This document shows, piece after piece, positions 14,912-32,141 of a stretch of DNA of 64,000 nt. The notes below the pieces were generated by a model, which was not told the DNA's origin, made no database searches, and saw nothing but the letters and a program-made list of their open reading frames with translations. How positions within the stretch are numbered: the stretch's first letter is position 1; every line of letters begins with the position of its first letter. A program made the position numbers and the translations under genes. This stretch comes from Pontiella sp. (GTDB lineage Bacteria; Verrucomicrobiota; Kiritimatiellia; Kiritimatiellales; Pontiellaceae), in contig JBNKHE010000002.1 in NCBI GenBank assembly GCA_050290185.1, forward strand, positions 32,001-96,000, in the 5' to 3' direction.

Positions 14912-15496
14912 TCAGGAATCTCCCTTCATGGCATCACGCAATTTCGCACGGATCCGGGCCAGCTTGGATTCAATGGCCTTGGCGCTGGTATTGAATTGCT
15001 CCGCCAAATCCACGTAGCTGCACCGGGCATAATATTTTCCTTCGATCAGCGCGCGGTCTTCCGGCGAAAGTGATTCCATGCACCGCTCCAGCTCGCCCAA
15101 CCGTTCCATGGCGGCATCGTCGGCATGGCGGCCCAGTTCCGTCCTATGCGCCAACTGCTCCATATATCGCATGCGGCGCAAGCGTTTGCGCCCGGCATCC
15201 GCGGCTACGCATTTTGCCAGACAAGCCAGCCAGTCCCAAAAAGAGGATTCATCTTCAAAGCGGCGAATATGCCGGACCACCCGCAGCATGGTTTGCTGCA
15301 CCAGATCGGCGGCCCGATCTTCGTTTCCGCGCTGCAACACGATTTGGTAACGGAAAAGCCGGTTAAAGTAGGCGTGATGAAACGACCGCCAGGCCGCTTC
15401 ATCTCCCTTCTTCATCGACGTCGTCAAACGTGCAATGGATTCATCATCCAGTAGAGCCATCATCCCCTCGATGCAGGATCGGTATTGCTCCGGCAT
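14912..15496 (-). CDS. ECF sigma-70 factor
   Basis: GDEAAW, AADLVQQT, F..WL, LSPEDRALI..KY, AIESKLARIRAKLR. Confidence 0.9.
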   Translation of the reverse strand: MPEQYRSCIEGMMALLDDESIARLTTSMKKGDEAAWRSFHHAYFNRLFRYQIVLQRGNEDRAADLVQQTMLRVVRHIRRFEDESSFWDWLACLAKCVAADAGRKRLRRMRYMEQLAHRTELGRHADDAAMERLGELERCMESLSPEDRALIEGKYYARCSYVDLAEQFNTSAKAIESKLARIRAKLRDAMKGDS

Positions 15497-15516
15497 TTAT
15501 TGCAAATCGATCGTTT

Positions 15517-16395
15517 CTATTGAACAGCGTTCCGGACGTTTTCCAGATCACTTGCCAACTGGCGGATCTCCGCCTGTAACGCCTCCAGCCTCTGGTGCAA
15601 GGAATAGTTCCTTTCCCGGATCTCCTCCATTTCCGCCTCAAGCTTAGCCATATTCTGCGATAAAGATTGATTCTCTGTTTCGATATTTTTTACCGCCTCC
15701 TTGAGTTCCTCCACTTGATCACTGTCCGTCGCAATAGATGGGTTCTTCCTTTCAGCATTTTCCAAGGCCGTCTTGAGTTCCTCCATTTGCTGGCTGTCCC
15801 CTGTAATGGGTTCGAGTTTTTCAAGAACACCTTGTACTATGCGGAATTGCTCTTCGGTTAAAGATGCCATTAGCATCGATGTTTCTTCATTGAAGGAAAA
15901 GTTCGGACGCGGAACTCCCATGATATTGTATGCTTCTCCAATCACACCAAAAATCTCTTTAGAGGCATGCACTTCCAGCAGGGGTGCCATAGGATACACA
16001 AACAAGGTGGTCGGTGGCGGGAACGTCATCTGACTGAGGGAAGGATCATGATACTGTACAAACATGGTATTAGAATTTCCAACGGAACCGCTAAAATTCT
16101 CGGCAATTGTGTCAAGAATATCCCAGAGTTCACGACAATTGGTTTGTTTCAGGTTTATCGGCGGAACAAGGGCAGAGCTTGCAAATTCATCATCGATCAC
16201 GATTATGTTTAGATTCGGCAGGGCTTCCTTCACATGAATCAGAATTTGTTCAACGGACCCACCTCCAAAATCGAGGTCGAAGCGCTTGTCTAGAGGCCCC
16301 ATCTCCTCTGCCGCAACGGGCAGACACACCGCAGCCATCAACAGCACAACCGCGAAAACGGATTTACACTGAGAATTCATCATTGATTTTTTCAT
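15517..16395 (-). CDS. secreted hypothetical protein with C-terminal coiled coil
   Basis: AGGAG RBS; signal peptide AVCLPVAA; FDLDFGGGS; 24-aa internal repeat; AT-richer than flanks. Confidence 0.75.
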   Translation of the reverse strand: MKKSMMNSQCKSVFAVVLLMAAVCLPVAAEEMGPLDKRFDLDFGGGSVEQILIHVKEALPNLNIIVIDDEFASSALVPPINLKQTNCRELWDILDTIAENFSGSVGNSNTMFVQYHDPSLSQMTFPPPTTLFVYPMAPLLEVHASKEIFGVIGEAYNIMGVPRPNFSFNEETSMLMASLTEEQFRIVQGVLEKLEPITGDSQQMEELKTALENAERKNPSIATDSDQVEELKEAVKNIETENQSLSQNMAKLEAEMEEIRERNYSLHQRLEALQAEIRQLASDLENVRNAVQ

Positions 16396-16485
16396 CTCGA
16401 TCTCCTTTTGCGTTAAACATGATCTATACGGAACACGTCGCTCCTTGCCATATCCCTCGAAAAATATCTACTGCTCAATATCCTC

Positions 16486-16730
16486 TCAACGCCTCCAAAT
16501 ACATTTGCCATTCTTTCGGACTTCACGGATGCGGTGAAAGGGAATGGTCAAGACCTCGCCATCGACGCAGATAGTGGAAGAAAATGGTTGCCCTTTTCGA
16601 GGTACAGTTCTTCGAGGAGATGGAATTCAACAGTATCGTCGACGCGATCGCAGATGCCGACGTCGAACGAGCCCTTTCCAAACTCATCATCCCAGTGGAT
16701 GCGGTTCAACAGCTCCCGGATCGTTTCCAT
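16486..16730 (-). pseudogene. frameshifted second copy of the DUF504 gene
   Basis: METIRELLNRIHWDDEFGKGSFDVGICDRV...GNHF, then a 1-nt deletion, then ICVDGEVLTIPFHRIREVRKNGKCIWRR*; 245 nt where 246 is expected. Confidence 0.85.
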
Positions 16731-16866
16731 GAAACAGATTTAAACACCAAGTCACTAAGAACACAAAGACAGAGCGCTTCCTAAACGCAGTGTCATCATC
16801 TCGCGCAAACACTCAAAAGCGGATCAAAATGACAGCCCACGGGATTCAGCGTCCGCGCCCAAATGA

Positions 16867-17412
16867 TCAAGCGGTTCCATAGGCATCAACCGCTGCTTGC
16901 ATGGCCATGAACATGACCTCAATGGCTTTTTTGGTAATATCATCCGTGAGGTTAAGCCCGTCATCGAATTTGCACTGCGCATCGGGCACATTGATGGAGC
17001 CCTCGACGACCACTCTTGCATTCATTGCAAAGAGGATGAGAACCAAGGGGCTGTGCGAGCGGACACCGCCAAGACCGCTGGTCGATACACTGGTCGCCAC
17101 CACGGGCTTGAAAACCAGCGCATCCGACGACACAAACCAATCAAGCATGTTCTTCAACGCACCCGGAATTCCATGGGCGTACTCCGGAGTACTGATGATT
17201 ACGCCGTCGGCGTCACGGATCATGGAACCCAATTGCTGCACCGATTCAGGGAGATCGTCATCGGCGACATCGGGATGGAAAATAGGGATGTCCTGTATTC
17301 GATCATAGACCGTCATGGTCGACCCTTCCGGACATTGCTGCTGCATTGCCCGAACGAGTGCTCGATTATAGGATTCTTCCCGAACGCTCCCCGCTATAGC
17401 CAATAACTTCAT
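16867..17412 (-). CDS. NADPH-dependent FMN reductase (flavodoxin-like, ChrR/SsuE family)
   Basis: AIAGSVREESYN, ADGVIISTPEYAHGIPGALKNMLDW. Confidence 0.92.
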   Translation of the reverse strand: MKLLAIAGSVREESYNRALVRAMQQQCPEGSTMTVYDRIQDIPIFHPDVADDDLPESVQQLGSMIRDADGVIISTPEYAHGIPGALKNMLDWFVSSDALVFKPVVATSVSTSGLGGVRSHSPLVLILFAMNARVVVEGSINVPDAQCKFDDGLNLTDDITKKAIEVMFMAMQAAVDAYGTA

Positions 17413-17510
17413 GCTGCCGATCCCTCCATCCACAAAACTCGAAATCCCGGTCATTGCCTCACCGAAATCAAGTGGCGGACCTTGCGAAATGAACCACAAT
17501 CGGACAAGCG

Positions 17511-17540
17511 AAAAACATTGAGCGAACGTTTCCGCTCAAA
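17511..17540 (-). terminator. probable intrinsic terminator after pbpC
   Basis: minus strand ttgagcg-gaaacgtt-cgctcaa followed by tgttttt. Confidence 0.6.
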
Positions 17541-17551
17541 TGCAGAACGCA

Positions 17552-19768
17552 TCACTCCACCATGATTTGCACCTGGGCGGCGTGACCGTTGGCGTCGGCG
17601 CAGGCGATGGTGTGCGCGCCTTTTTCGAGCGGCCAGAAAATCGGTTGCCCGGCATCGTCGGCATGCAGCAGCTCATTGTCGACGAACCAGTAGAGTGTGT
17701 TGTTGCTCAAGCCGGAGGCGACGAGCTTGATCTCCTGCCGGATGCCGGGCGAGGCCGGTAGCATGCGAAAGGTTTCTCCGTCAACGGGAGACACAATATC
17801 CAAGCCGTGTTCCGTGGCCCCGCTCTCCGTATCGCACATGCCGCGCTGATCGAGAAAGGACTGCACCTCGGCCGGCCAAATCTCCTGCCCGCTGCGATGA
17901 ATTCCACAATGTTGCACCGGGGAAATCCGCGGAATGTAGAGATCGGCAATGGTGTGCGGGCAATCCGGGCCGGGTGCCAATCCGCTGCATGTGCAGACCT
18001 GCCGGAGTTCAAGTCCGGCTGGCTTTGCATACCAAGGTGAATGCCCGTCCGGATAGAGCCGCCGGAAGATATCGCCAACCACCGGGCCGGCGGCGGTTCC
18101 TCCCACCAAGGCTTCCGATGGAGTGCCGTCGGGATTGCCCAGCCATACGCCAACCACATAGTCGGGATTATAGCCGACGGCCCACGCATCGCGATGGCCG
18201 GAGGACGTGCCGGTCTTCCAGGCGATACGCGGCAGAACAACGTCGGCCATATGACCAACCAGTTCATCCGAACGCTCGTCGCCGCCCAAGATGTCGGCAA
18301 TCATGTAGGCGCCCTCGGCAGAAAAGATTTGTTGCTCCTCTCCCGCTGGTTCGTTTGCCAGAAACCTCAGTGGCTGCCATCTACCACCTCGCGCCAGACA
18401 GGCGTAGGCATTGGAAAGGTCGAGCAACGTCGCTTCGCAACTACCAACCACGACGCCAAGTCCATAATATTCCGCCGGATGATCGATGGTGGTAAATCCG
18501 AGTTGCCGCAACTCGGCAACAAAAGCATCGAGCCCCACCTGCTCCACGCACTTCAACGCCGGGATATTGAGCGACTGCACCAACGCGCGACGAACACTGA
18601 CCGGACCACAATATTCGAGACTGTAGTTTTGCGGCGTGTAGCCTGCAAAGTGCATCGGAACATCGGCCATCATCGTGGCCGACGTGCATAGTCCCTGATC
18701 CATCGCGGCGGCATAGGCAAACGGCTTCAGCGTCGAGCCCGGCGAACGGCGGGCAACAACACCGTTCACCTGACCCGACGCCGAAACATTCCAAAACTCC
18801 GGCGACCCCACCATGGCGAGCAGTTCGCCCGAATGCACATCGATCACCACCACCGCACCTCCATGTACGCCAAGTCCGGACAGCTCGTCGATGTGGCGCT
18901 GCAATGCGCTTTCCGCCAAATGATGAATATCGAGATCAAGGGTGGTATCCAGGTTGGCCCGACCGGGATAGCGCTGAAGGATAAAGTCGCAAAAGTGCGG
19001 CGCGAGAAACGGTAGCGCCTTCCGACGGATCTCAAGCGGTTGGTTGTGCGCTGCCTTGAGCTGCCCGCGCGTGATCATGCCGTTTTCCAGCATACGCGAA
19101 AGCACCACGTCGCGCTGCCGCAGCGCCATCGCAAGATGACGGTCCGGCCGCAAATAGGACGGCGACTGCGGCAAGCCGGCCAGCATGGCGGATTCGGCTA
19201 GACTCAGATTGCAGGCCGGCTTGCCGAAATAGCGCTGGCTCGCGGCTTCAATACCGTAGACGTTGCCCCCGAAGGGCGCCCGGTTGAGGTATTGCTCCAG
19301 GATCTCGTCCTTCGAAAGGTGCGACTCCAACTGGCGGGCGTTATGGGCTTCGACCAGCTTCGTCCAGAGATTGCGTTTGCGCGGCTCGGTCAGTTTGACC
19401 ACCAGCGTCGTGAGGGTCGATGCCCCCGACACCACCTTGCGGCAAACCAGATCATAGACGGCAGCCCGGCAAACCGCAACGGGATCGACGCCGCCGTGCT
19501 GATAGAAACGTTTATCCTCGAACGCCACCACCGCCCGGCCCGTCCACTCGCCAGTCTGCGCAAGCGGAACAGGATCGCACAGGATTTGACTTTCATCGGG
19601 CACCATCCGCAATGGCCTCCCGTGGCGGTCACGGATTTTCACCACCGCATCGAAATCCTCCAAGTCGCCGCGATAGTCGGGGATCGACCACCACACCACT
19701 CCGAACACAATCAAGCCAAAAACCACCATGCGAATGAATGCATTCCTGCTGATCATGCGAATTCTCAT
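17552..19768 (-). CDS. pbpC: penicillin-binding protein 1C
   Basis: transglycosylase EDKRFYQHGGVD, SGASTLT, YLNRAPFGGN; transpeptidase SPGSTLKPF, SLN, KTGTS; C-terminal BiPBP-like domain. Confidence 0.95.
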   Translation of the reverse strand: MRIRMISRNAFIRMVVFGLIVFGVVWWSIPDYRGDLEDFDAVVKIRDRHGRPLRMVPDESQILCDPVPLAQTGEWTGRAVVAFEDKRFYQHGGVDPVAVCRAAVYDLVCRKVVSGASTLTTLVVKLTEPRKRNLWTKLVEAHNARQLESHLSKDEILEQYLNRAPFGGNVYGIEAASQRYFGKPACNLSLAESAMLAGLPQSPSYLRPDRHLAMALRQRDVVLSRMLENGMITRGQLKAAHNQPLEIRRKALPFLAPHFCDFILQRYPGRANLDTTLDLDIHHLAESALQRHIDELSGLGVHGGAVVVIDVHSGELLAMVGSPEFWNVSASGQVNGVVARRSPGSTLKPFAYAAAMDQGLCTSATMMADVPMHFAGYTPQNYSLEYCGPVSVRRALVQSLNIPALKCVEQVGLDAFVAELRQLGFTTIDHPAEYYGLGVVVGSCEATLLDLSNAYACLARGGRWQPLRFLANEPAGEEQQIFSAEGAYMIADILGGDERSDELVGHMADVVLPRIAWKTGTSSGHRDAWAVGYNPDYVVGVWLGNPDGTPSEALVGGTAAGPVVGDIFRRLYPDGHSPWYAKPAGLELRQVCTCSGLAPGPDCPHTIADLYIPRISPVQHCGIHRSGQEIWPAEVQSFLDQRGMCDTESGATEHGLDIVSPVDGETFRMLPASPGIRQEIKLVASGLSNNTLYWFVDNELLHADDAGQPIFWPLEKGAHTIACADANGHAAQVQIMVE

Positions 19769-22700
19769 TCCATGCCAATCCGGATAGTGCCTTTACCACT
19801 GACGCTTTCGATTTCAGGATTGTACATGCACGAGGCCGAAACCGCGGGCCAGACAAACTCGCCGACTGTCACCGCACGTAAGGCATAGCAATAGCTCTTG
19901 CCGCCATCGAATGCCCCCGGAAAGACAAGCACACGGTCATCGCGAATATCGAGATGCTGCACCGGCAAGGTCTGCATATCGCCGGCCCGTCTTACCGACT
20001 CCGATGTTTTCAACGCACTGTTTTCAACTTCCAGTCCTGCGGGCAGTAAATCTTCGATCACCATGTTTTCAAGCCACCGATCCGCCGATAGATTCAGTTT
20101 AACGATATACAGCTCGCCCTGCGTCAATCTCATCGGATCGACATCCTTACCGTTTAGGTCCAGCAAGGATCGTCGAATCCGAACACCCCGGTCATGCTCA
20201 TCGGTTTCGCCATCGGCAGAAACGCCTTCCGACTTCCAACAAAGAAACAAATCACCCTCGCCATGGTTTTCAACTTGCACGTTTTCGCCCCGCAGTGATT
20301 CAAGCGCTACCCGCAATTCTTCACGGTCTTCAAACCCAACACGGTGCGCACCGCCGCCCCAGCTGACCCGGCCCGAAACCGGCTTTTGTTTTGCGGCCAG
20401 TTGCTTCGTATATTTGCCCAGAGCCATCAGCGCCATGGCATTGTCCTGCGTATGGCTCCAACGCCCATTGGATTGGGCGTCCTCCAACCAGCGAACCAGC
20501 ACGGGAATCTTCCCGTTCTCAGGATCGACATCCAACAGCGCGGAAAGCAAAAAAGCATTGCCACGCACGGCGGACCGAAGGCTGCCGCCGCTTTCGACAG
20601 GAACCGATACGGACGACGAACCGCCCAGACGGTCCAGCAGCTCCACCGCCTGCCGCCGTTGCCCGGCCGCCAGCGCGGCGGATACCAGATTGATGCGCGT
20701 ATCGTAGCGGAGCCCATTCCATTTTTCGCACAACCGCGCCATGGTGCCGTGCTGCGGCCGGCCACCCAGCGCGAGCACAAGACATCCATAGGATGCGTTG
20801 TAGTCCCAGCCGTTGTGGTCGAACGACGCGTTGCGCACCTTGTTCTCCACATAATCCAGCGCCTCTTCGAGCCGGTCCTTCGGCACGGTGTATCCCGCGC
20901 GGGAAGCCTCCACTAGAAAATGCGTGGCGTAGATCGAACCCCATTCATAGGTGCCGCCATTCGGCCAGAGCGAAAACCCGCCATGGCTGTTTTGCATCGA
21001 CAGGATGCGGTAGATGCCCGCGTTGACAAATTCGGTCGTCCCATCCTTACCCAACCAACCGGGCCGCGTTTGTTCGACCAGCTCCGACAGGTACAGCAGC
21101 GGAAACGATTTCGAGGTGGTCTGCTCCAGACATCCGCAGGGATAGTCGATGAGGTAATCGAGGCTTCCGCCCAGCTTGACGGCCGGCAATGCGGAGATCC
21201 ACAGCGAAGCCTCTCCGGTTCCTTCCAGCCATTTTCCGGGAATGGAAACGTCCGTCTCCGTCCCGGCCTCGACCTTGCCATATCCGCAGAAAACCGTGCG
21301 CGGTGCCGCCGGACGAACCGCGATTTCAACATCCTCCACATAGTGTTCCGGGCCCATTTCCGCCGTCAGTTTGCAAACAGCCTTCCCGGGCATCGCGGCG
21401 GTCTTCAGATGGAATTCGAGATTGGTGGCGCTGCCCCCCGCGAGGAAGATGCGGGAAGCGGCGGCATCGCATTCGAGCGGCCCCTCGCAAGCCACCGACA
21501 CCGCCACATCGTCGTCTTGCTTTGATTCGTTGTAGACGCGCACCGGCATGGTGAATACATCCTCCGGCGCGAGAAAGCGCGGCAGGCTGCTCTGCACCAC
21601 CAGCGGGCGCTTGACCAACACCGACTGTTCGGCGGAACCAAAGCGGAAGCGATCAATTACCACCGCCATGACCCGCAGCTGGCCGGTAAATTCCGGCACG
21701 TCGAACACGACGCGAGCCTGCCCGTTGGTGTCCGTCTCGACGGAGCTCGACCACAGCGCAACCGGCTTGAAGCGCCGCGCCTTGATCGGATTGAGCCGCT
21801 TGCCGATGGCCGCCAGCATGCCGCCACCCGGCGCCGACGCAGCGCCGGCAACATGGTCCATCGCTTCCGGCATTAACCGGGCGTAGAGGTCGTGCAGTTC
21901 CATCCCCGGCAGGCGCGGACCGAAAAAATAGTCGTAGGGGTCGGGCGTCTTGAATCCGGTCAGCATGCAGATGCCCTCATCGACCGCCGCCAGCACGATT
22001 TCGGATTTGCATCCGGCGCCTTCGGCATCATGGACCAGCAGCGGTATTTCGAGCTTCATGCCGGGCCGCATTTCGGCGGGAAGCTCCATCGCAACCGACA
22101 GCCTTTTTTCCGGCTGTTCCACAATCAATGGAATCCGTCCGGCGGCGCGATGCTGCCCCCACACCTCTTCCGGCAACGCCGGCCGGACCACGCTGACAGA
22201 GCAGTAGACATTCGGGCGGTAGGCCGCCTCGACGGGAAGTTTCACCTCGGCGGTATTGTTGGTCAACTCCATCACCCGGTGCAGCAGGATGGTATCGGAC
22301 TCGACGGTCAGCAGCGCCTTGCCGGGAAACGGCGAGTGAATCGACAACCGGGCGGTGTCGCCCACACGATAGGTTTCGTGGTCCAGTTCCAGCCCAACCC
22401 GATCCGGTGCCGCCATGGACCGTTCACCCCATCGCTGGCCGGGGGCATGGATCTGGAATTCCAGCGAGGATGCCGCCGTGCTTTTCTCGTCTTCAACCAC
22501 CAGCCGGTAATCCCCCGCATGCAGCGCCGCAAATTCAACGGAGGCCCGCCCGTTCACAACGACAACATCCCGGGACTCGATTTCGGAGGCCTGCTGTTCG
22601 GAACGATAGGCATAGTGGTCACCCTCCTTCCGCAACACGGTCACCCAGTTGAGTTTCTCGACCTTCGTCTTCAGTGCTCCGGAGCCAGCGACCAGCGAAC

Positions 22701-25152
22701 CATCCGGCGCAACGACCACCAGATCAAAGGAGTGGGTATTCCCGACCTCCAACGACTCGTCCGGACGGCGAATACCGACATAGCTGGGATAGACATCCAC
22801 GATGCGGCTTCCGTATTCGGTCACCGTCCGCCCCCCGGATTCCTGCACCGATCCTGAAACGACCGCCTTGATGGCCGCCGGCGGACGCCACTTCGTCGAG
22901 ATTTCCGCGGAGAACTCCATCTCACCATCGGCATCGAGCCTCTTCTTCCCCAGCGCCTTCTGCACGGTCTCGAATTCGCGGCGGGCATCGCCAAACGCGT
23001 AGTCTGCCCAGGCGGCCGGCGCAAAACCGCATGGCATGAAATCGATCCGCGCACGGACCGGCATCCCTGCAGCTGGACGCCCGAAGAGATGCTGCCCGGC
23101 CACCTTGAATTTAAAATCCGCGCCCGCCGCAATGCGGTCCCTGGAGATTTGGAGCGTGGTTCGAATTTGCGGCGGCACGAATTCTTCGACCGATACCGTC
23201 AACCCACCGATGCACACGTCCCCTCCCGGCATTTTGGTCTGCAGGTGGTATTTCCCGGTGGCGACATAGTCGGCCAGCGGAATAGTAAACTCGACGGCAC
23301 CATATTCCCCCAGCATGCCGTTGAGCGTTCGGTCGGTCTTGCCGTCAGGACGAATGACCGCCAGCTCCAGTGGGAACGCTTCGGGACAAACCGCATCGCG
23401 CTCGCGCACAACGGCCTTGCAATGCACCGTTTCGCCGGGACGGTAGATGCCGCGATCGGTGAACAGGAAGGCTTCGTAGCCCTTGTCGAGATAGGAGCGA
23501 TCGCCCGCCATGCCCCGCAGATTGACCTGCGAGCCATCGAGCTGCATATAGGTCAGATCGTCGCCATGTTCAACGACCACCAGAAAGGGTTTCCCTTCGG
23601 AAAGCATCGCTTCAGGGTCGAGCCGAAGCAGTCCGTCCGCTCCGGTTTCGCCGCTCAGCAAGAGCTGGTTTTCCTCCGACAGAATCCGAACCGAAGCGCC
23701 TGCGACAGGGTCGAGCGTGCGGATCGAATTGACCCATACCAGCATATCCTTTCCCGACTGCCGCAACGACAGGCCCAGATCGCTGACCACCACATCGTGC
23801 GATGTTTGTCCACCCCGCTCGCCCTTGATCTCAATGTGGAATGCGCCGGTTTTTCCATCGAGCCGATCCCGCAGCTCAAGGTTGCGTTCCACGATTTCGT
23901 TGGCGGCGGCATCGACCGGAAGCTCGAATTCACACACGGGTTGATCGAGTCCCTGGTAAGTCGATCCATAATAATAGCCGCTTCGCCCCGACTGGCGCAT
24001 CACCAGCTGAACCAGATTATTGGAATAGATCCGGTTGATTTTTACCGAACACTTTCCGGCATTCACCGCCTTGAACGGAATCGACAGATTGCCTTGCGGC
24101 GAGAGATAGGTCCCTCTTGCGGAAAATTCCACGGCCGAACGATGCCAGGGAAAATAAACCGTGCGCGCATCGTCCTTTTCCAACAGTGCGGCCTGCTCGC
24201 TCACCAGTCCCTTGCGGAAGGAAACGGTATATTGCTCGCCCGCCTTGAAATCACCCAGAATGCGCAGGTACTGCCGCCCGCTCCAGGAATCGCGGGCTTC
24301 CACGCTAAAATCCATTTCAGGTTTTATGCCGAGAAACGCTTTCGCCACCGCGGGATCGACTGGCGCGTTGAACGCGACCTCCACTTGCCCGGGCTCGAAA
24401 GGCTTCGACTTGGCCGCGATGCGCAAGACGCGTAGATCCCGGGAAACATCGACTTGGCGAACGGCATCCTGCCCCAACCCCAACGGTCCCGCGGTGGAGG
24501 TCAGGCCCTTGCGCACCGTTACCTCCAGTTCGCCTTCCACAATCGCATCCATCGAAACCCGGATGGTTTTGCGGGGCGCGGCGTTACCGCTTGACAGAAC
24601 CTTCACTTCCTTTCCCGCCGCATCCCGGACCGTCAGGTATTTCCTGAGTATCGACGGCGACACCGCTTGGCTGAATTCAAAATCCAGCTGAACCGAAGCT
24701 ACATCCCCAACATTGCTTTGACGAACATCCAACAAGGCAAGCGGCGAAGATTGAAAAGCCGTTGTACGGTTCCCATCCAACGGTTTTCCTTCCAGGGAAC
24801 GAAGGTCATCTTCAAACACCGCCGCAAACGGAACACAGGCTGCCCAGCCGTCGGACGGACGAAAGGAGAGTTCGCTGGCTGCGGTCCAGCAGAATTCACC
24901 CTTCACACCGGGAGAAAACAGGACCGGGCCGCTATCCATCCATTGGCCAATGCGATCGATCGCCACCATGTCCGATGAGAAGCGCCAGCGGACCACATCG
25001 CGCGAACCTGATTCCACCATTCCGTCTTCCGGTGCAACGAGCGAGGCTCGAACGGGGCCCGTATTCCGCTGGCCGCCAAGCCAGCGGAATACGGCGTAGC
25101 CGTTCAGGAGGAGAAAACAGAGACCGAGAACAAACCAGCGATGACCCTTCAC
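19765..25152 (-). CDS. bacterial alpha-2-macroglobulin (YfhM-like)
   Basis: 1795 aa; FTDRGIYRPGE, VEEFVP, AAVDEGI, thioester motif GCLEQ, DLLPAGLE; N-terminal TM anchor. Confidence 0.95.
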   Translation of the reverse strand: MKGHRWFVLGLCFLLLNGYAVFRWLGGQRNTGPVRASLVAPEDGMVESGSRDVVRWRFSSDMVAIDRIGQWMDSGPVLFSPGVKGEFCWTAASELSFRPSDGWAACVPFAAVFEDDLRSLEGKPLDGNRTTAFQSSPLALLDVRQSNVGDVASVQLDFEFSQAVSPSILRKYLTVRDAAGKEVKVLSSGNAAPRKTIRVSMDAIVEGELEVTVRKGLTSTAGPLGLGQDAVRQVDVSRDLRVLRIAAKSKPFEPGQVEVAFNAPVDPAVAKAFLGIKPEMDFSVEARDSWSGRQYLRILGDFKAGEQYTVSFRKGLVSEQAALLEKDDARTVYFPWHRSAVEFSARGTYLSPQGNLSIPFKAVNAGKCSVKINRIYSNNLVQLVMRQSGRSGYYYGSTYQGLDQPVCEFELPVDAAANEIVERNLELRDRLDGKTGAFHIEIKGERGGQTSHDVVVSDLGLSLRQSGKDMLVWVNSIRTLDPVAGASVRILSEENQLLLSGETGADGLLRLDPEAMLSEGKPFLVVVEHGDDLTYMQLDGSQVNLRGMAGDRSYLDKGYEAFLFTDRGIYRPGETVHCKAVVRERDAVCPEAFPLELAVIRPDGKTDRTLNGMLGEYGAVEFTIPLADYVATGKYHLQTKMPGGDVCIGGLTVSVEEFVPPQIRTTLQISRDRIAAGADFKFKVAGQHLFGRPAAGMPVRARIDFMPCGFAPAAWADYAFGDARREFETVQKALGKKRLDADGEMEFSAEISTKWRPPAAIKAVVSGSVQESGGRTVTEYGSRIVDVYPSYVGIRRPDESLEVGNTHSFDLVVVAPDGSLVAGSGALKTKVEKLNWVTVLRKEGDHYAYRSEQQASEIESRDVVVVNGRASVEFAALHAGDYRLVVEDEKSTAASSLEFQIHAPGQRWGERSMAAPDRVGLELDHETYRVGDTARLSIHSPFPGKALLTVESDTILLHRVMELTNNTAEVKLPVEAAYRPNVYCSVSVVRPALPEEVWGQHRAAGRIPLIVEQPEKRLSVAMELPAEMRPGMKLEIPLLVHDAEGAGCKSEIVLAAVDEGICMLTGFKTPDPYDYFFGPRLPGMELHDLYARLMPEAMDHVAGAASAPGGGMLAAIGKRLNPIKARRFKPVALWSSSVETDTNGQARVVFDVPEFTGQLRVMAVVIDRFRFGSAEQSVLVKRPLVVQSSLPRFLAPEDVFTMPVRVYNESKQDDDVAVSVACEGPLECDAAASRIFLAGGSATNLEFHLKTAAMPGKAVCKLTAEMGPEHYVEDVEIAVRPAAPRTVFCGYGKVEAGTETDVSIPGKWLEGTGEASLWISALPAVKLGGSLDYLIDYPCGCLEQTTSKSFPLLYLSELVEQTRPGWLGKDGTTEFVNAGIYRILSMQNSHGGFSLWPNGGTYEWGSIYATHFLVEASRAGYTVPKDRLEEALDYVENKVRNASFDHNGWDYNASYGCLVLALGGRPQHGTMARLCEKWNGLRYDTRINLVSAALAAGQRRQAVELLDRLGGSSSVSVPVESGGSLRSAVRGNAFLLSALLDVDPENGKIPVLVRWLEDAQSNGRWSHTQDNAMALMALGKYTKQLAAKQKPVSGRVSWGGGAHRVGFEDREELRVALESLRGENVQVENHGEGDLFLCWKSEGVSADGETDEHDRGVRIRRSLLDLNGKDVDPMRLTQGELYIVKLNLSADRWLENMVIEDLLPAGLEVENSALKTSESVRRAGDMQTLPVQHLDIRDDRVLVFPGAFDGGKSYCYALRAVTVGEFVWPAVSASCMYNPEIESVSGKGTIRIGME

Positions 25153-26483
25153 TGCGCCGTCCCTTCCGCACGGGAGCCCAGCGCATACCAGTCCAGTTTA
25201 CGGGTGATCATCATGACCAGCGCCATCAAGCCGAACAGCAGGACGGAACCGGCGACCAGCGCATGATCCTCCGACTGCAACAGGACATAGAGGATCCCGT
25301 AGAGCAACGCCAGCAATCCGCCAAACGCCAGCCCACGCCCGATACTGTGCAGAATTCCGCACACGTAAAAGACGATCAGCCCGATGGTGGCCATACTCGC
25401 CACGCCATAGGAAAGGCCGAATCCGACATGCTCGGAAAGGCTGAGCAACAACAGGAAAAAAATCGCCTGCGCCAGCCCGACCAATCCGTACTGTACCGGA
25501 TGGATCTTCAATGCAGCCAGCACCTCGAAAAGCCAGAACGCGGCAAAGGTGATAAAGATGAAAAGAAATCCATATTTCAGCGCGCGGTCGGTCAGCGAAT
25601 ACAGACCAACCGGATCGATCAGGCTTACGCCGAACGACTGGACATAGCCTTTACCGGCTTTGATATTCTGCCGGGCGGAACTGGCCAGTGCATTGACATT
25701 CCAGACCGCCGAAAATCCTTCACCTGAGATCGTTCGATCATCGGGGAGAAATTCGCCTAGAAAGCTGGGGTGCGGCCAATCCGATTTCAGCGTGAAATGG
25801 TTTTCTGTACCGACAGGAATAAACTGGAGTTGCCGGGTACCGTTGATCCTTAGATCCGTACTGAACTGGAACGACTTGCCAAACACCCCGGCCGCATCCG
25901 GGAGCGCCACATGTATCCCTTCCTCCAGAGAAGTGAGTTTGCTGCCCTCTTCAAATTCAAGGGGTTGGCCGTTCCATTGCAGGATCGGAATGGAGGGGAG
26001 TCCCCGCGGATCATCGACGATGAAACAGGCATCCACCGAAACCAGTTCTGTGCGCGTGCTTTTGCGATGGCCCATCGATTCAAAGGATGGAAATGAGACG
26101 CTGCCGGAAAGTTTTCCTGCACTCTGGAATATGTTCGCTTTGAAGATGCCTCGCTTGCGCTCCTGCACCGACATCGTTCCTTCATACGTGCACATGGATG
26201 GGAAAACCAGTTGCGAATGAACGGCATCCATCTCCTTGTCGTACCAGACATCCTTTTCCTCGTTGTACAAGTGTTCGGTCCAAAACTCGCGAAAGATGAC
26301 CTTGAACACCGGTCCGCCGACTTGCTGCACCCCGGCATAACTCCCCGCAATGTTTTGCTCCACTTCATTCAGCCGGTCCTTGCGCTCCTGCGTCAGTCCA
26401 CCAATCGATCCCAACACTGCCAGCAGCACCAGCGAGATGCCGCTGAGCACCAGCAGCTTCAATAACATCTGTCGTCCCATCAT
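25149..26483 (-). CDS. creD: inner membrane protein CreD
   Basis: RKRGIFKA, SDWPHPSF.G.FLP, FGVSL, DRALKYGFLFI, IHPVQY.LVGLA, LLSLSEH, TRKLDWY; AGGAGG RBS before ATG 26483. Confidence 0.95.
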   Translation of the reverse strand: MMGRQMLLKLLVLSGISLVLLAVLGSIGGLTQERKDRLNEVEQNIAGSYAGVQQVGGPVFKVIFREFWTEHLYNEEKDVWYDKEMDAVHSQLVFPSMCTYEGTMSVQERKRGIFKANIFQSAGKLSGSVSFPSFESMGHRKSTRTELVSVDACFIVDDPRGLPSIPILQWNGQPLEFEEGSKLTSLEEGIHVALPDAAGVFGKSFQFSTDLRINGTRQLQFIPVGTENHFTLKSDWPHPSFLGEFLPDDRTISGEGFSAVWNVNALASSARQNIKAGKGYVQSFGVSLIDPVGLYSLTDRALKYGFLFIFITFAAFWLFEVLAALKIHPVQYGLVGLAQAIFFLLLLSLSEHVGFGLSYGVASMATIGLIVFYVCGILHSIGRGLAFGGLLALLYGILYVLLQSEDHALVAGSVLLFGLMALVMMITRKLDWYALGSRAEGTAQ

Positions 26484-26523
26484 ACCCAACCTCCTTGTTA
26501 TGCAGACAGGATGGCCGGGCTCT

Positions 26524-26561
26524 TTGAAAAGAGTTTGAACGCAATGTGAAATGGAGGTGAA
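26524..26561 (-). promoter_or_regulatory. four-unit cre-tag/blr-tag (CreB binding array)
   Basis: minus strand TTCAC-ctccat-TTCAC-attgcg-TTCAA-actctt-TTCAA, exact 11-bp period, between the creC stop and the creD RBS. Confidence 0.85.
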
Positions 26562-26564
26562 AAA

Positions 26565-28001
26565 TCATCCTTCCACGGGAATAAAGAGACTGGCGCACAC
26601 GCCGCCTTCAGGCCGGTTGGACAGCCGGATGTCGCCGCCGTGCAGCTTGGCGATTTCGCGGACAAAGTTGAGACCAAGACCGGAACCCTTCTTTCCGCCG
26701 TCGGGACGGGGCAGTGAATAGAAGCGTTCGAAGATGCGGTTGCGCGCATAATCGGGAATCCCCGAACCTTGATCGAGCACCTCGCAGAAAACAATGCCGC
26801 TTTCATTGCGCACCACCAATTCGACGATCGACTGCTCCGGCGAAAAATCGATTGCATTGCGCAGCAAGTTGGCCAACGCCTGCCGCAATAGGAAATATTC
26901 GCCGCACAGGGCTACATTATCCGGAATGTTTTTATGGATCTCGATCTGCCTCGCCTGCGCTACCGGCATGAGGCTGTCGATCACATCGTTCAACAGCTCG
27001 TGCACATCGATCGCCTCCGTATGCATCAGTCCCTTGCGCTTCTCCAGCGCGGCGAGCGAAAGCATGCGTTCAACCAAGCCCTGCATCCGTTCCGACTCGG
27101 AGCGGATGTTGTCGAGGAAGCGCTTCCGCTGTTCGGGGGTCATGTCCTCGTCCAGCAACTCGGCCGCGCCGCGTATGGCTGCCAAGGGACTCTTCATCTC
27201 GTGGGTGAGCGACTGGACATACTCCTCGACATACTGTTTGCCCTCCAGTGTATCGCGCATTTCCTCAAACGCGTTGGCCAGCTCGCTCATCTCGCCGCCG
27301 TGCCCGAGCTGGGGTCGCTTAACAGAACGCCCGTCGCGGATCGCCCGTGCATAGTCCGTCAGCGCGCGTACCGGCTGAATGATCCAAAGCGAAATGGGCA
27401 CGAGCATCAACAGGATGGCCGCGAAGGCGATCACGCACGAAACGACCAAGCGTTTACGGGCCTGCTGCATGAAGGGTGCAATGCTGCTCACGGGTTTGCC
27501 CACAGTCACCGCCCCGACAATCTCCCCGTCCACAATGACCGGTGCCGCAATGTAGAAATGAAAGCTGTCTAGATCGCCCTTGATGTCGTAGGAAGCCCGC
27601 GCCCCGTATTCCCCGGCCAGAGCCAAGCGGGTGTCCCGCCAATGGTATTCGTCACCTTCATCCAGTTTTCCGCGGGAATCGTAGAGCACCAGTTCAGCAC
27701 GGTTCACGATGATCACCCGCATGTTCATATTGGTTTTCGTAAAGTTGTAGATGTGGGCCGACAATTCACGGTTCCCGGCCCGCTCCAAGGCTTCATCGAA
27801 TGAAGAATCCAGCTTGATCTGGCCATCGGTTGCCTGCAAGGCCACCTGCTCGGCAAGAATCACCGAAGTGTCGACCATCGACTCCTCCATGGTGATGAAA
27901 TAATGCAGCCGCACATCGTGCACGATCCAGTCGACCAGCCAGTAGAATCCAATGGAAAGCAGGATCAGCGCGGTCAGCAGCAGGCGGGTCCGCATTTTCA
28001 T
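26565..28001 (-). CDS. creC: sensor histidine kinase CreC
   Basis: MEESMVDTS.ILAE, LAGEYGARAS, LEGKQYVEEYVQSLTHEMKSPL, NAIDFSP, FYSLPRP..KKGSGLGL. Confidence 0.95.
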   Translation of the reverse strand: MKMRTRLLLTALILLSIGFYWLVDWIVHDVRLHYFITMEESMVDTSVILAEQVALQATDGQIKLDSSFDEALERAGNRELSAHIYNFTKTNMNMRVIIVNRAELVLYDSRGKLDEGDEYHWRDTRLALAGEYGARASYDIKGDLDSFHFYIAAPVIVDGEIVGAVTVGKPVSSIAPFMQQARKRLVVSCVIAFAAILLMLVPISLWIIQPVRALTDYARAIRDGRSVKRPQLGHGGEMSELANAFEEMRDTLEGKQYVEEYVQSLTHEMKSPLAAIRGAAELLDEDMTPEQRKRFLDNIRSESERMQGLVERMLSLAALEKRKGLMHTEAIDVHELLNDVIDSLMPVAQARQIEIHKNIPDNVALCGEYFLLRQALANLLRNAIDFSPEQSIVELVVRNESGIVFCEVLDQGSGIPDYARNRIFERFYSLPRPDGGKKGSGLGLNFVREIAKLHGGDIRLSNRPEGGVCASLFIPVEG

Positions 28002-28705
28002 GCATTCACCTTCAAACAGTAGCCCCAGCCGCGGCGCGTCTGCAGGCAGTCGGCTTCCGGATCAATTTCACGCAACTTGGAGCGCAGGGTCTTGATGTGT
28101 GTATCGACCGTGCGATCCAGGCTAGACTCCGGTTCGTCCCATGCATGATTCATTAGCTGCTCGCGCGAAAACACCTGCCCGGGATGGCAGATCATCAGTT
28201 CCAACATACGGTATTCGTATCGGGAAAGCCCCAGCGGTCTCCCGTGGTAGTAGATATCCTTGCTCTTGGGATCCACCCGAAACAACGAAGGTGGCTCGGA
28301 TGGTGACGTATGGTTATGGTTGCCGTTGGTCCGGCGCAGAATGGCGCGGATGCGGGCGGTCAATTCACGCGGACTGAACGGCTTGGTCACATAATCGTCC
28401 GCCCCCAGCTCCAGACCAACGATCCGGTCGATCTCTTCCTCCCGCGCGGTCAAGAAGATGATCGGCACCTCTGATTTCGTGCGGATGCGGCGGCAAAAAT
28501 CAAATCCATTCTCGTCCGGCAATCCGACATCCAACACCACGAGATCGATAGACTGCCCCTCCAAAATCTCCCACGCTTCGCCGGCCATGCCGACGCAGAT
28601 GGGTTCCATGTTTTCGGTCCCGACCGCAAAGGCAATGTTTTCCGCGATCGACGGTTCGTCCTCGACGATCAGGATCTGATTTCTCGCAATGGGATTGGAT
28701 TCCAT
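27998..28705 (-). CDS. creB: OmpR-family response regulator CreB
   Basis: VEDEPSIA, LDVGLPD, GLELGADDY, LSRYEY, DRTVDTHIKTLRSKL; overlaps creC. Confidence 0.92.
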   Translation of the reverse strand: MESNPIARNQILIVEDEPSIAENIAFAVGTENMEPICVGMAGEAWEILEGQSIDLVVLDVGLPDENGFDFCRRIRTKSEVPIIFLTAREEEIDRIVGLELGADDYVTKPFSPRELTARIRAILRRTNGNHNHTSPSEPPSLFRVDPKSKDIYYHGRPLGLSRYEYRMLELMICHPGQVFSREQLMNHAWDEPESSLDRTVDTHIKTLRSKLREIDPEADCLQTRRGWGYCLKVNA

Positions 28706-28814: not shown

Positions 28815-30251
28815 TCAGCGCAGGAAGAAGCTGCCGCCGGGCTGACGGGTTTCGCCGGCGGTGGTGACGCGGATGGCGGCGAGGTCGTTGACGGGACATT
28901 CGTGCTGGCAGAGACCGCATCCAATGCAACGTTCCGGGTTCACCCGAGGCTGATGGAGCTCGATCGTCTTTCCGTCCAGCTCCACGGTAACGGTTTCCTT
29001 GTAGATCGCCTTGGGCGAAACGGGACAGACCTCTTCGCAAACCATGCAGTTGCGGCCGAACGACCATGGCAGGCAGCGCGAGCGGTCGACAAACGCATTA
29101 CCGACCTTGACGGGCTCTCCGGTTTCCACACCATGTTTCTGTTCGATGGTCAAACGCTCGATGGCACCGGACGGACAGACCTGCCCGCACATGACGCAGT
29201 TGTATTCGCAATAGCCCCGCTCCAGATCCATCACCGGTGTCCATATGCCGGAAACACCCGCTTCGGTGAAGGCCGGACGAAGCACCCCGGTCGGACAAGC
29301 CTTCATGCATTCACCGCATTTGATGCAACGGTCGAGAAAATGCGGCTCGGCCAACGCACCCGGAGGACGGATGCGTTCGGGATAGCCATCGACCGCCTGG
29401 GATTTCAACGCAATCACCGTGGCACCACCGGCCACGGCCGTGCCGAAGAATGCGCGACGCGATACGCCGACTTCGCGGTTGAGCTCCTCTTCCTTCGGCA
29501 TCCATTGCCAGGCCAGTGCCTTCTCGGGGCAATCCTCGATGCAGTTCCAGCACATGAAGCATTCGGCCATGCGGGTCTTTTGATCGGGGCTGCATGCGCC
29601 GATGCAGTCGCGGTTGCATAGTCCGCAATCGGTGCATTTATGCAGATCGCGAACAACACCGCCGGGAATGAATTTGGACGCGGTCCCGAGCAACGCCCCC
29701 AACGGGCAGATGTAGCGACACCAGAAGCGAGGCTTCCACGCGTTCAGCAGGAAGAGCACGGTGAAGATCGCGATCAGCATCCAGCCGAGCCGCATGCCCG
29801 GCGATACCAGCGCCTGGCAGGTACGGGTCAGCAAAGCGATTGGATCGAACAGACCAACCTGCATGAAACCGAAGGCGCTAGAGAGGAGCAGCACAATAAG
29901 AATCAGATATTTGTAGATCTGTGCCGGACTGTGGAAATTCTGCCGGATACGGTCCTTCACCTTCTTCGGACGCAGCCAGCGCGATGCAAGATGGAACAAG
30001 GTACCGAGCGGGCAGATCCATCCACAGAAGAAGCGTCCAAGAAACGGCGTCAACACCAGAATCAGCAAACCGATTCCCATGGTGTAGGCGATGTTATGGG
30101 CAGACAGCAGTGTGCCGACCGCATTGAGCGCCGAGCTGTCGAGGAACAGTGTAACCGGATATCCCTTCAGCCAGCCCTGTGCCGTCAGTGTGAACGCGAC
30201 GACGAACAGGCCGAGGAAGAATCCCTGATAATAACGGCGCAGCTTTCTCAT
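28815..30251 (-). CDS. membrane polyferredoxin (NapH-like membrane domain fused to NapG/MauM-like domain)
   Basis: GRFFCGWICPLG, RFWCRYICPLG, multiple CxxCxxCxxxCP motifs; internal SRRAFF motif. Confidence 0.9.
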   Translation of the reverse strand: MRKLRRYYQGFFLGLFVVAFTLTAQGWLKGYPVTLFLDSSALNAVGTLLSAHNIAYTMGIGLLILVLTPFLGRFFCGWICPLGTLFHLASRWLRPKKVKDRIRQNFHSPAQIYKYLILIVLLLSSAFGFMQVGLFDPIALLTRTCQALVSPGMRLGWMLIAIFTVLFLLNAWKPRFWCRYICPLGALLGTASKFIPGGVVRDLHKCTDCGLCNRDCIGACSPDQKTRMAECFMCWNCIEDCPEKALAWQWMPKEEELNREVGVSRRAFFGTAVAGGATVIALKSQAVDGYPERIRPPGALAEPHFLDRCIKCGECMKACPTGVLRPAFTEAGVSGIWTPVMDLERGYCEYNCVMCGQVCPSGAIERLTIEQKHGVETGEPVKVGNAFVDRSRCLPWSFGRNCMVCEEVCPVSPKAIYKETVTVELDGKTIELHQPRVNPERCIGCGLCQHECPVNDLAAIRVTTAGETRQPGGSFFLR

Positions 30252-31222
30252 GAGGTTGCCTGCACCTTCTTGAACAGCTTCAGGTTTTCCTGACTCAACA
30301 CACCGAGTCCCAGCTTGGCGGCCATGGCCAGATAGGAAACATCGTTCGGATCAAGCCCCAGCAACTGCACACCAAAACAGTCGATCGCCACCTGGTCGGT
30401 GCCAGCCACAATCACATTGCCGGGTTTCACGTCGGACGGACTGCCGCCGGTCGGCCCATTCGACACCAGCAGGCGCGAGCCATCGAGTACCACGAGCGTC
30501 GGTGTGATGAACTGTCCCAGGTCTGCAATCACCTCGTTGATCGCCTGATGCAACCGGTTGCGCGGTCCGCCCAGCAGGCCATACCAGTTTTTCATGGTCA
30601 ATGTGGCCTTGCTGAGGTTGTGCGACTTGACGGTTGGAATTCCGATCAGTTTATCGGCCCAGTCGAGCGGACGATAGAGTGCCTCCCAGTCGGGAATCCG
30701 CAACGAACCCACCTTCACCTGTCCGAATAACGAAGCGGTCGGAAGCCATACCTCGCCGCCGGCGGAACCGACGGCATCCATCAGGCCGGACTTGACAAAG
30801 CACCCCTCGGGATTGTTGATCGGGTTGTCGATCACGCGCACCTGCGCACCGGCAGCCACGCATTGCCGGACGACTTCGGCCGTTACCTCCGGCGAGGTGG
30901 TGGCCCCGAGATGCGGAGGCCGATCGAAGGCGCAGTTGGGCTTGATTAAAACCCGGTCGCCCGCCCTGACGAAGCGCTCGATGCCACCGAGCTCCTGCAA
31001 CGCCGCGCGCACCGCCAACGCCGGGTCCGTGCCTTCGGCCACGGTCATCATGCCCTCCGTTCCGGGTACCGCAAACGAGGGAATAAGTTTGGCGGTTTCG
31101 CCGGAAGGAACCAGATTGCGGTTATGGAAGAACGCACCGACCGCAGCGGTTCCAGCGGCAAAGCCGGCGGCCGCACCCACGCGCTTCATAAACATTCTGC
31201 GTTCGGATGATGAATTATTCAT
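30248..31222 (-). CDS. DUF362 domain protein with Tat-like signal
   Basis: ERRMFMK; LGGIERFV..GDRVLIKPN, KSH..TLTMKNWYG, NGPTGG, DQVAID. Confidence 0.9.
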   Translation of the reverse strand: MNNSSSERRMFMKRVGAAAGFAAGTAAVGAFFHNRNLVPSGETAKLIPSFAVPGTEGMMTVAEGTDPALAVRAALQELGGIERFVRAGDRVLIKPNCAFDRPPHLGATTSPEVTAEVVRQCVAAGAQVRVIDNPINNPEGCFVKSGLMDAVGSAGGEVWLPTASLFGQVKVGSLRIPDWEALYRPLDWADKLIGIPTVKSHNLSKATLTMKNWYGLLGGPRNRLHQAINEVIADLGQFITPTLVVLDGSRLLVSNGPTGGSPSDVKPGNVIVAGTDQVAIDCFGVQLLGLDPNDVSYLAMAAKLGLGVLSQENLKLFKKVQATS

Positions 31223-32132: not shown

Positions 32133-32141
32133 GGTCGTTTC

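Follow-up and report, generated by a model that had tools for sequence, protein, structure and literature searches.

In E. coli, Aeromonas and P. aeruginosa, CreBC/BlrAB induces creD via the tag TTCAC-N6-TTCAC, and E. coli CreBC also answers carbon-source cues, as described in PMC4689548. Colicin M is described as an inducer of creD in E. coli (PMC3599342). S. maltophilia has a similar tag and gene order, yet its CreBC is described as repressing creD, which is not induced there by beta-lactams, while hp136, located 10 bp downstream of creD, is not co-transcribed (PMC4689548, PMC10039701). CreD function and CreBC outputs are characterized in PMC10039701 as poorly known. For the pair formed by alpha-2-macroglobulin (A2M) and PBP1C, a trap-and-repair role is a long-standing proposal (PMC4498604), and PBP1c is reported in PMC7554673 to have no known role under laboratory conditions.

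The window analyzed here, a 64,000-nucleotide stretch of DNA from a Pontiella sp. (class Kiritimatiellia), contains these parts in a single run of genes, with the following features:

27998..28705, minus strand: creB, response regulator, 235 aa (NCBIfam CreB, 307 bits, cut-off 273)
26565..28001, minus strand: creC, sensor kinase, 478 aa (NCBIfam CreC, 534 bits, cut-off 356)
26524..26561, minus strand: cre-tag array, four TTCA(C/A) repeats at 11-bp pitch, predicted CreB operator
26508..26513, minus strand: -10-like hexamer CATCCT, 10 nt past the fourth repeat
26490..26496, minus strand: creD ribosome-binding site AAGGAGG
25149..26483, minus strand: creD, inner-membrane protein, 444 aa (CreD NF008712, 451, cut-off 275; PF06123, E 8e-131)
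25160..25167, minus strand: Shine-Dalgarno-like GGAAGGGA within the creD 3′ end, 5′ of the A2M GTG start, predicted to couple the two genes
19765..25152, minus strand: A2M, thioester alpha-2-macroglobulin, 1795 aa (bacterial A2M Pfam domain set)
17552..19768, minus strand: pbpC, encoding PBP1C, 738 aa (PBP_1c TIGR02073, 642 bits, cut-off 494)
17518..17539, minus strand: terminator-like hairpin, 9 bp with a U-rich tail, 3′ of pbpC (folding z = -2.97)

The order creB-creC-[gap]-creD-A2M-pbpC, as given in the preliminary description, is confirmed, with five genes, 4-nt overlaps at creB/creC (27998-28001), creD/A2M (25149-25152) and A2M/pbpC (19765-19768), and the array lying in the sole intergenic gap (26484-26564, 81 nt). 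The hairpin that it placed 3′ of pbpC is also present; terminator-like sites across the whole region are at chance level (13 versus 13.8 expected), and G011 has no comparable hairpin at this position (folding z = -0.56).

We consider it fairly probable that creD-A2M-pbpC is one transcript, with activation predicted to come from CreB~P at the four-repeat operator, and that A2M-PBP1C is one of two alternative cargoes. CreBC likely switches the trap on, since A2M and pbpC overlap the end of creD, the predicted site is conserved, and the same slot holds a different surface protein in sister genomes. Mechanistically, CreC would sense a periplasmic cue, probably peptidoglycan damage by analogy with E. 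coli under colicin M, Aeromonas and Pseudomonas, and CreB~P would bind the four repeats at the -35 position and activate transcription from CATCCT. Ribosomes ending creD would then restart at the overlapping GTG via the Shine-Dalgarno-like site inside creD, and again at pbpC, such that CreD, a membrane-anchored thioester protease trap and its partner PBP1C would be gained together.

The array reads TTCAC-N6-TTCAC-N6-TTCAA-N6-TTCAA, in which the known cre/blr tag (26546-26561) is extended to four repeats, and it is conserved in 15 loci. A TTCAC-N6-TTCAC pair by itself is weak evidence, as it occurs in 17 of 100 window shuffles and five times in the genome. The triple-repeat pattern, on the other hand, has 2 matches versus 0.05 expected, and the only exact TTCAM triples in the genome are the two within this array. 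A site model trained without the window's own site scored that site at 71.4 bits and the next site in the genome at -0.7. The A2 and T6 of the CATCCT hexamer are constant in 15/15 loci, and TATCCT occupies the corresponding place in the creD promoter of E. coli. The array and fixed -10-like hexamer are found together at all 15 Pontiella creD loci whose genome carries CreC, versus none of the four without it; in G057 the array precedes creD-A2M although creC is non-adjacent, on another contig. The recognition helix of CreB (DRTVDTHIKTLR, 28082-28117) is identical to that of E. coli CreB. Based on this comparative evidence, CreB likely binds at the creD promoter. Because the genome has no second full operator, creD-A2M-pbpC is probably the main target of CreB here, and the regulon probably comprises one operon. 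There is no terminator between creC and creD, so transcription running on from creBC could express these genes whether or not CreB acts.

The same operon and operator could also be under repressive control, as in S. maltophilia, or under metabolic or growth-phase control, as in E. coli on fermentable carbon. The precedents for this are the S. maltophilia system, where creD is repressed and beta-lactams do not induce it, and the carbon-source response of E. coli CreBC; in addition, the periplasmic part of CreC shares only 28% identity with its E. coli counterpart (E 3e-22; 39% for the whole protein). However, the operator replaces the -35 box beside a weak -10, as it does in E. coli, where CreB activates, and this layout is a mark of activation in PhoB-type regulators. 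Both cargo types are also exported envelope proteins, which likewise speaks against this alternative. We regard repressive or metabolic control as unlikely, though the best placed of the alternatives to activation. The preliminary description's ‘envelope damage’ signal is nonetheless overstated, being borrowed from Proteobacteria, one of which, S. maltophilia, has a CreBC that represses creD.

Median anti-Shine-Dalgarno pairing of the creD 3′ end is -8.0 kcal/mol where a coupled gene follows (11 loci) versus -2.55 where none does (8 loci), with the caveat that kin are not independent; the G011 site is weak (-3.5). Both the overlap and the Shine-Dalgarno-like site are retained between G000 and G011 at ~73% nucleotide identity. 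Folding at the creD/A2M and A2M/pbpC junctions was no better than in shuffled sequences. An independent promoter inside creD had been named as a possible refutation, and a sigma-70 consensus scan of the minus strand, a type of scan that can miss promoters, found none inside creD or A2M. On the comparative evidence, translational coupling of A2M to creD is likely.

Junctions between creD and A2M were found in five sequences (G000, G011, G057, L093 and L095), which fall into two separate creD clades. The arrangement is thus no one-off, though the neighborhood comparison places it in Pontiella only. Adjacency of creD and A2M was seen in 0/27 other Verrucomicrobiota genomes carrying both genes, and the sample from outside the phylum, which comprised E. 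coli MG1655 and eight of the 33 plasmid or chromid records that carry creD, showed no A2M within 7-8 kb of creD. A GTDB scan with a single CreD protein reached one close relative. In the rest of the class, 0/20 A2M-pbpC loci have creD or a tag, which means that the cassette does not need CreBC control. Within Pontiella, the slot behind creD holds A2M in 3/19 creD-bearing genomes, while the commoner cargo (7/19) is a VIT-vWA protein that in most cases is accompanied by a sortase; both cargoes would be coupled via a ribosome site in the creD 3′ end. Scored against TIGR03788 (cut-off 552), three cargo VIT-vWA proteins gave 562, 549 and 534, one of them above the cut-off, and one cargo sortase scored 67 against TIGR03784 (cut-off 158). 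A general circuit is hence not supported. As in the preliminary description, which knew of no account of the arrangement, our literature search found no description of CreBC-creD wired to A2M-pbpC, and it found no paper on a Gram-negative VIT/sortase system.

This rarity, together with frequent rearrangement of the locus and the precedent of S. maltophilia hp136 as a close but non-co-transcribed gene, would fit an incidental capture, in which A2M-pbpC is driven by a promoter of its own or by a constitutive one, CreB acts on creD alone, and the linkage carries no regulatory meaning. Against this, monophyly of the creD clades with an A2M junction is rejected (p-AU 9e-9), all five Pontiella-type A2Ms with visible upstream DNA lie behind creD, and the overlap and its ribosome site have been kept at the divergence noted above, making incidental capture distinctly improbable in our assessment.

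Identity to the G063 contig is ~95-99% before the creD start codon and 65% from it onward (creBC 95%, creD 65%). By these identities the creBC-operator block has been swapped among lineages, and the start codon of creD marks where the exchanged part breaks off. This argument rests on within-contig identities, as the rpoB tree is unreliable for G011, G062 and G063, whose bins have rpoB contigs in common (99.8-100%). The assembly of this genome contains no 16S gene, and its placement draws on kinship labels and protein names. While that step in identity and the existence of mixed bins in the group might suggest an assembly chimera or a one-off rearrangement, a chimera would require one junction where creB begins and a second where creD begins, and this explanation is scarcely credible given the complete creB-creC-array-creD-A2M-pbpC order on a single G011 contig and creD-A2M in three further sequences.

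The A2M protein has all expected domains (MG, bait-region, TED and C-terminal MG) and matches the ECAM and SaA2M structures over aa 310-1783 (E 1e-113). Its CxEQ thioester motif is CLEQ (aa 1341-1344; 21121-21132) and its RDDR motif lies at aa 1737-1740. Of the Tyr/Met pocket that protects the thioester, the protein retains counterparts of Tyr1183 and of the C-terminal MY, while the ECAM Tyr1185 position, a Tyr in 16/19 homologues among the matches listed, is a Cys. Read by eye, the N-terminus has a single hydrophobic anchor segment (aa 7-25) and no lipoprotein signal (LAGC in ECAM); residues 1-38 of the G011 orthologue include no Cys. The nearest homologues lie in Pontiellaceae and Kiritimatiellia and GC3 is like that of neighboring genes, grounds on which a recent horizontal import of A2M-pbpC was rejected.

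PBP1C contains GT, TP and BiPBP_C domains, and its transpeptidase motifs STLK, SLN and KTGT are intact (SxxK, SxN and KTGT as defined in PMC4810414). Its glycosyltransferase keeps the catalytic Glu84 and has Leu122 in place of the motif-2 Gln, a replacement common to the Pontiella PBP1Cs (Leu in G000, G011, G065 and G365), whereas the Gln is kept in 19/20 class-level PBP1Cs and in three aligned solved structures. This Gln is said, in work by Terrak from 2008, to be needed for glycosyltransferase activity. Glycan polymerization by this PBP1C is accordingly uncertain, and its loss of the conserved Gln weakens the earlier reading as a ‘peptidoglycan synthase for repair’, which now appears doubtful.

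CreD has an N-terminal helix, a predicted periplasmic beta-sandwich and C-terminal membrane helices (1 + 5 hydrophobic segments; structure model pLDDT 87.6). No sequence kinship between its periplasmic domain and VIT was found (hhalign probability 0.3%). The fold of this domain matches ITIH1 (6fpy; Z 7.8, rmsd 4.2, 160 residues), but the likeness is only a lead, because it ties with many aminopeptidase N-terminal domains and falls below Legionella lpg2210 (Z 12.4).

One speculative and decidedly unlikely reading is that CreBC-creD is a socket for swappable envelope ‘armour’ cassettes, each pairing a large exported plasma-protein relative (A2M or an ITIH-like VIT-vWA protein) with its own transpeptidase (PBP1C or sortase). 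By the parallel with the VIT-vWA and sortase cassette, the glycosyltransferase-degenerate PBP1C would place A2M at the wall or couple it there instead of repairing glycan, and both cassettes would have a common membrane partner in CreD, whose periplasmic beta-sandwich belongs to the same broad class as that of the VIT region in ITIH. Leaving this reading aside, every component is already known and only the wiring may be new. The natural fusion of CreBC-creD with A2M-PBP1C gives genomic support to A2M-PBP1C as an inducible envelope-stress response and names a candidate trigger, and the mutually exclusive cargoes link A2M-PBP1C and VIT-vWA/sortase to the same physiological slot, offering a clue to what these two pairs, and CreD, do. 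Its weight is limited by a linkage within one genus, by parts already known and by regulation deduced from sequence.

Compared with known systems, the Pontiella locus resembles E. coli creABCD, Aeromonas blrABD and P. aeruginosa creBCD in equivalog-level CreB, CreC and CreD and in gene order, and it shares with E. coli the creD promoter layout of tag array and -10 along with the CreB recognition helix. It differs from creABCD in having no creA, four intact repeats and probably a one-operon regulon; E. coli creD is followed by convergent arcA, whereas Pontiella creD heads a coupled A2M-pbpC pair. S. maltophilia creBCD-hp136 is alike in order, in the tag before creD and in a gene close behind it, but in that species creD is repressed by CreBC and not co-transcribed with hp136, while in Pontiella the downstream gene overlaps creD with a Shine-Dalgarno-like site inside. 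E. coli yfhM-pbpC and Salmonella SaA2M (Type I A2M with PBP1C) have the same domain set, CLEQ, RDDR and pbpC directly downstream; the Pontiella A2M is 26% identical to ECAM, with a hydrophobic anchor in place of ECAM's lipoprotein signal and Cys for Tyr1185, and its PBP1C is without the motif-2 Gln. A distance of ~2 Mb separates yfhM-pbpC from creD in E. coli, and in Pontiella A2M-pbpC is directly behind creD. The dedicated sortase system of Proteobacteria (a TIGR03788 VIT-vWA target with a class GN sortase, TIGR03784) is normally paired with PdsRS. The TIGR03788-type VIT-vWA and sortase cargo of the sister genomes, absent from the window itself, can be likened to it, except that the one cargo sortase scored falls far short of the TIGR03784 cut-off and that this cargo sits behind CreBC-creD and not behind a PdsRS pair of its own.

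Re-reading of the minus strand bore out the layout of the preliminary description, with five ORFs, three 4-nt overlaps and one 81-nt gap. The identities proposed there also held: CreB, CreC, CreD and PBP1C score above NCBIfam cut-offs, and the 1795-aa ORF carries the domain set of a bacterial alpha-2-macroglobulin (A2M), aligning with the E. coli (ECAM) and Salmonella (SaA2M) structures at E of about 1e-113. Its closest named homologues come from Pontiellaceae and Kiritimatiellia. All five genes are single-copy (tblastn, 3.58-Mb genome), and the hairpin reported behind pbpC has z = -2.97. For a cultured representative of the order, a Gram-negative, peptidoglycan-containing wall has been described (PMC5148204).

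27998-28705, minus strand: creB
26565-28001, minus strand: creC
26524-26561, inside the 81-nt gap: four TTCA(C/A) repeats with an 11-bp period
25149-26483, minus strand: creD
19765-25152, minus strand: A2M gene
17552-19768, minus strand: pbpC, encoding PBP1C

Downstream of pbpC (14912-17499) lie genes for an FMN reductase, a 292-aa coiled-coil protein and an ECF sigma factor, which are missing between pbpC and a dehydrogenase-like gene in Pontiella genome G011. Upstream of creB (28815-33257) are genes for a polyferredoxin (NapG/H-like), DUF362 and DUF6599 proteins and an aldo-keto reductase with a 4Fe-4S domain. In genome G047, a polyferredoxin resembling that of the window is found downstream of creD.

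The predicted CreB operator before creD is probably real, judging from its rarity, conservation and company. A lone cre-tag (TTCAC-N6-TTCAC) is near chance (17/100 shuffles), while the triple form exceeds it (2 matches versus 0.05 expected). creD was found in 19 of 54 family genomes, and all 19 loci were read, as was that of sister-family genome G032. Of these creD loci, 15 carry the four-repeat array, 14 of them with creC adjacent; in the other, G057, creC sits on a different contig. No array was found at creD of G004, G018, G059 or G032 in the loci read, and these genomes (completeness 78-98%) have no CreC above cut-off; in G021 the DNA upstream of creD is cut off. The Fisher p of 0.0003 for array versus CreC is overstated because kin are not independent. 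Ten nt behind the fourth repeat, a hexamer (CATCCT in the window) keeps A2 and T6 in 15/15 loci, and the E. coli creD promoter has the same layout, with TATCCT behind a degenerate fourth repeat; the recognition helix of E. coli CreB is identical to that of the window CreB. With a model from 13 other loci, the window site scores 71.4 bits, a value inflated by the nearly identical training locus G062, and the genome's next best site scores -0.7, the absence of a second site being unaffected by that inflation. Among 11 metagenome loci, five have the four-repeat array, and L093 has three repeats at its contig start.

TTCA arrays also occur close to creB, upstream of it, or in front of genes other than creD (L174 in G086, L179 in G218, L197 in G647), suggesting other CreB targets or autoregulation. 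A creD without creBC and without array stands in L013 (G004), L021 (G059), L012 (G018) and L010 (G032). In G004 and G059 it comes behind an ORF that by eye resembles alanyl-tRNA synthetase, and may therefore be read through constitutively. Short CreD variants, matching the family model only in its C-terminal membrane part, are located behind creC in L205-L209 (G571, G573, G511, G639, G619), some with a tag array.

The gene layout, the operator motif, the conservation of this motif and its occurrence together with CreC are observations; the reading that we consider most likely, and reasonably probable, is that CreB~P activates a single creD-A2M-pbpC transcript, in which CreB would bind the array and the overlapping genes would be translationally coupled. 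The signal, taken here from homologues, would be of a kind described for them: CreBC reacts to loss of PBP4 in Aeromonas and P. aeruginosa and, in E. coli, to carbon cues (PMC4689548); colicin M induces it (PMC3599342), and CreD helps growth in beta-lactams (10.1101/615310). Reports on S. maltophilia describe repression of creD by CreBC and no co-transcription of a close downstream gene (PMC4689548, PMC10039701), which counts against activation of one transcript. A different sign or signal of CreBC control is the foremost alternative, albeit rather unlikely in our estimate.

The position behind creD looks like a slot for coupled genes ('cargo'). Among the 19 Pontiella loci, A2M follows creD in three (G000, the genome of the window, G011 and G057), a 647-656-aa VIT-vWA protein (TIGR03788 type), the commonest cargo, in seven (G006, G054, G062, G063, G064, G067, G069), a 169-aa ORF without Pfam match in one and no coupled gene in seven; one is cut off. 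Downstream of the VIT protein, a sortase comes next in 6/7 loci, the seventh being truncated. The order creBC-array-creD-VIT-vWA with a 4-nt overlap, plus sortase where the contig reaches, was read in L015 (G006), L019, L020, L024-L026, L029, L097 and L101. The 11 metagenome loci include creD-A2M in two (L093, L095) and creD-VIT-sortase in two (L101 and L097, the latter apparently the same as G064), the others being cut or having other neighbors. The overlap with creD is 4 nt in ten of 11 cargo genes, while one begins 1 nt behind creD, and median pairing of the creD 3' end with the anti-SD is -8.0 kcal/mol with cargo versus -2.55 without. The two cargoes are mutually exclusive in the genomes tested: no TIGR03788 match was found in G000, G011 or G065 and only a weak partial one in G057, and PBP1C was not found in any of the seven VIT genomes. 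PBP1C occurs in 3/54 family genomes. In the third, G065, the contig begins within A2M and creD was not found in the genome; its A2M is 96% identical to protein P0003, whose N-terminus is that behind creD in L093. The complete five-gene order was seen in G000 and G011 only, the contigs of G057, L093 and L095 stopping within A2M. In G057 (L022), the reading frame of the A2M gene behind creD is lost at around codon 1126, through either an assembly error or decay of the gene. Six Pontiella genomes hold other, distant A2M-like genes (L214, L218-L223), which reach at most 26% identity to the window A2M over short stretches, and pbpC was not found in their 1.5-kb flanks.

A2M-linked CreDs fall into two clades, (G000, G011, L093) and (G057, L095), each surrounded by VIT-linked or cargo-free relatives; a single clade was rejected (p-AU 9e-9). 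Incidental capture of A2M-pbpC behind creD, to which we give a low probability, has to be set beside this pattern and the conserved overlap. In trees, the G000 CreB and CreC fall with those of the VIT-cargo loci G062 and G063, and its CreD with that of G011; alternative groupings were rejected (p-AU 6e-5 and 0.004, for groups named after the trees were seen). Nucleotide identity to the G063 contig is 95.2% in creB, 94.9% in creC and 98.8% in the gap, steps at the creD start codon to 65.5% in creD and is about 76% in more distant syntenic genes of that contig. Against L025 (G063), the block at 26484-28705 breaks at the creB and creD starts. As this within-contig contrast shows, the sensor-operator-RBS block has been exchanged between lineages, and it is used with either cargo. 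Bins G011, G062 and G063 are cross-contaminated, since two of the three rpoB contigs in G011 match the rpoB contigs of G063 and G062 at 99.8% and 100% (L079, L086, L090); this blurs the donor species, not the within-contig contrast, and we regard an artefact as very improbable.

In the window A2M, CLEQ, RDDR and the MY near the C-terminus are all conserved. Where ECAM has a lipoprotein signal and a thioester-shielding Tyr1185, it has an N-terminal hydrophobic anchor without such a signal and a Cys. In PBP1C, every transpeptidase motif is intact and the catalytic Glu is retained. The Gln of glycosyltransferase motif 2, reportedly essential in E. coli PBP1b, is replaced by Leu in the window, in G011 and G065 and in G365, which is the nearest homologue from the class, and is kept in 19/20 class pbpC loci. 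The predicted CreD structure has, with high confidence, a helical membrane domain that carries a beta-sandwich in the periplasm; its best match is Legionella lpg2210 (Z 12.4, rmsd 3.4, 184 residues), followed by N-terminal domains of aminopeptidases and by ITIH1 (Z 7.8), and these matches imply no function.

Adjacency of creD to A2M/pbpC, which the preliminary description proposed to seek across genomes, recurs as a creD-A2M junction in G000, G011, G057, L093 and L095; no other genus was seen with it. Range was sampled in two overlapping sets, 401 genomes of the class and 251 of the phylum. Of 27 genomes outside Pontiella that have PBP1C as well as a creD match, 26 carry them on separate contigs and one 90 kb apart; in G188, G216 and G260, the contig ends at or close to creD, and adjacency to A2M/pbpC is possible there. 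Class pbpC loci on long contigs (20 out of 123) have A2M in 19/20, and neither creD nor tag was found at these 20. Of 50 creC hits in 401 phylum genomes, 40 loci were read, and all 40 lack A2M and pbpC in the up to 12 kb that follow creC, some contigs being shorter than 12 kb; a VIT protein is downstream in 4/40, with an exosortase next in two of these. In family f74 of the same phylum (L173, L180, L181, L186), creBC is followed by a VIT protein with no creD between, an exosortase comes next in two, and L180 has a TTCA array before the VIT gene. Together, the creC-locus and Pontiella surveys indicate that CreBC is more widely partnered with VIT-vWA plus a sorting enzyme, A2M-PBP1C being the Pontiella alternative. 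None of eight plasmid or chromid records examined (of 33 with creD) has A2M near creD; on a Vibrio europaeus plasmid (L225), a response regulator-creC-creD unit immediately follows a gene whose annotation is a TcdA/TcdB pore-forming-domain protein. On genomic evidence, the creD-A2M linkage is real, recurrent and so far confined to one genus.

A full-text literature search, with most subscription papers outside its reach, did not find the creD-creBC-macroglobulin linkage, nor, among the matches listed, a paper with all three of alpha-2-macroglobulin, pbpC and creD; yfhM was absent from papers with Cre terms among the matches listed (30 of 135). The creD-A2M-pbpC combination, which we did not find described, joins component systems that are all known. 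In E. coli, by comparison, the creBC-creD and yfhM-pbpC units lie about 2 Mb apart.
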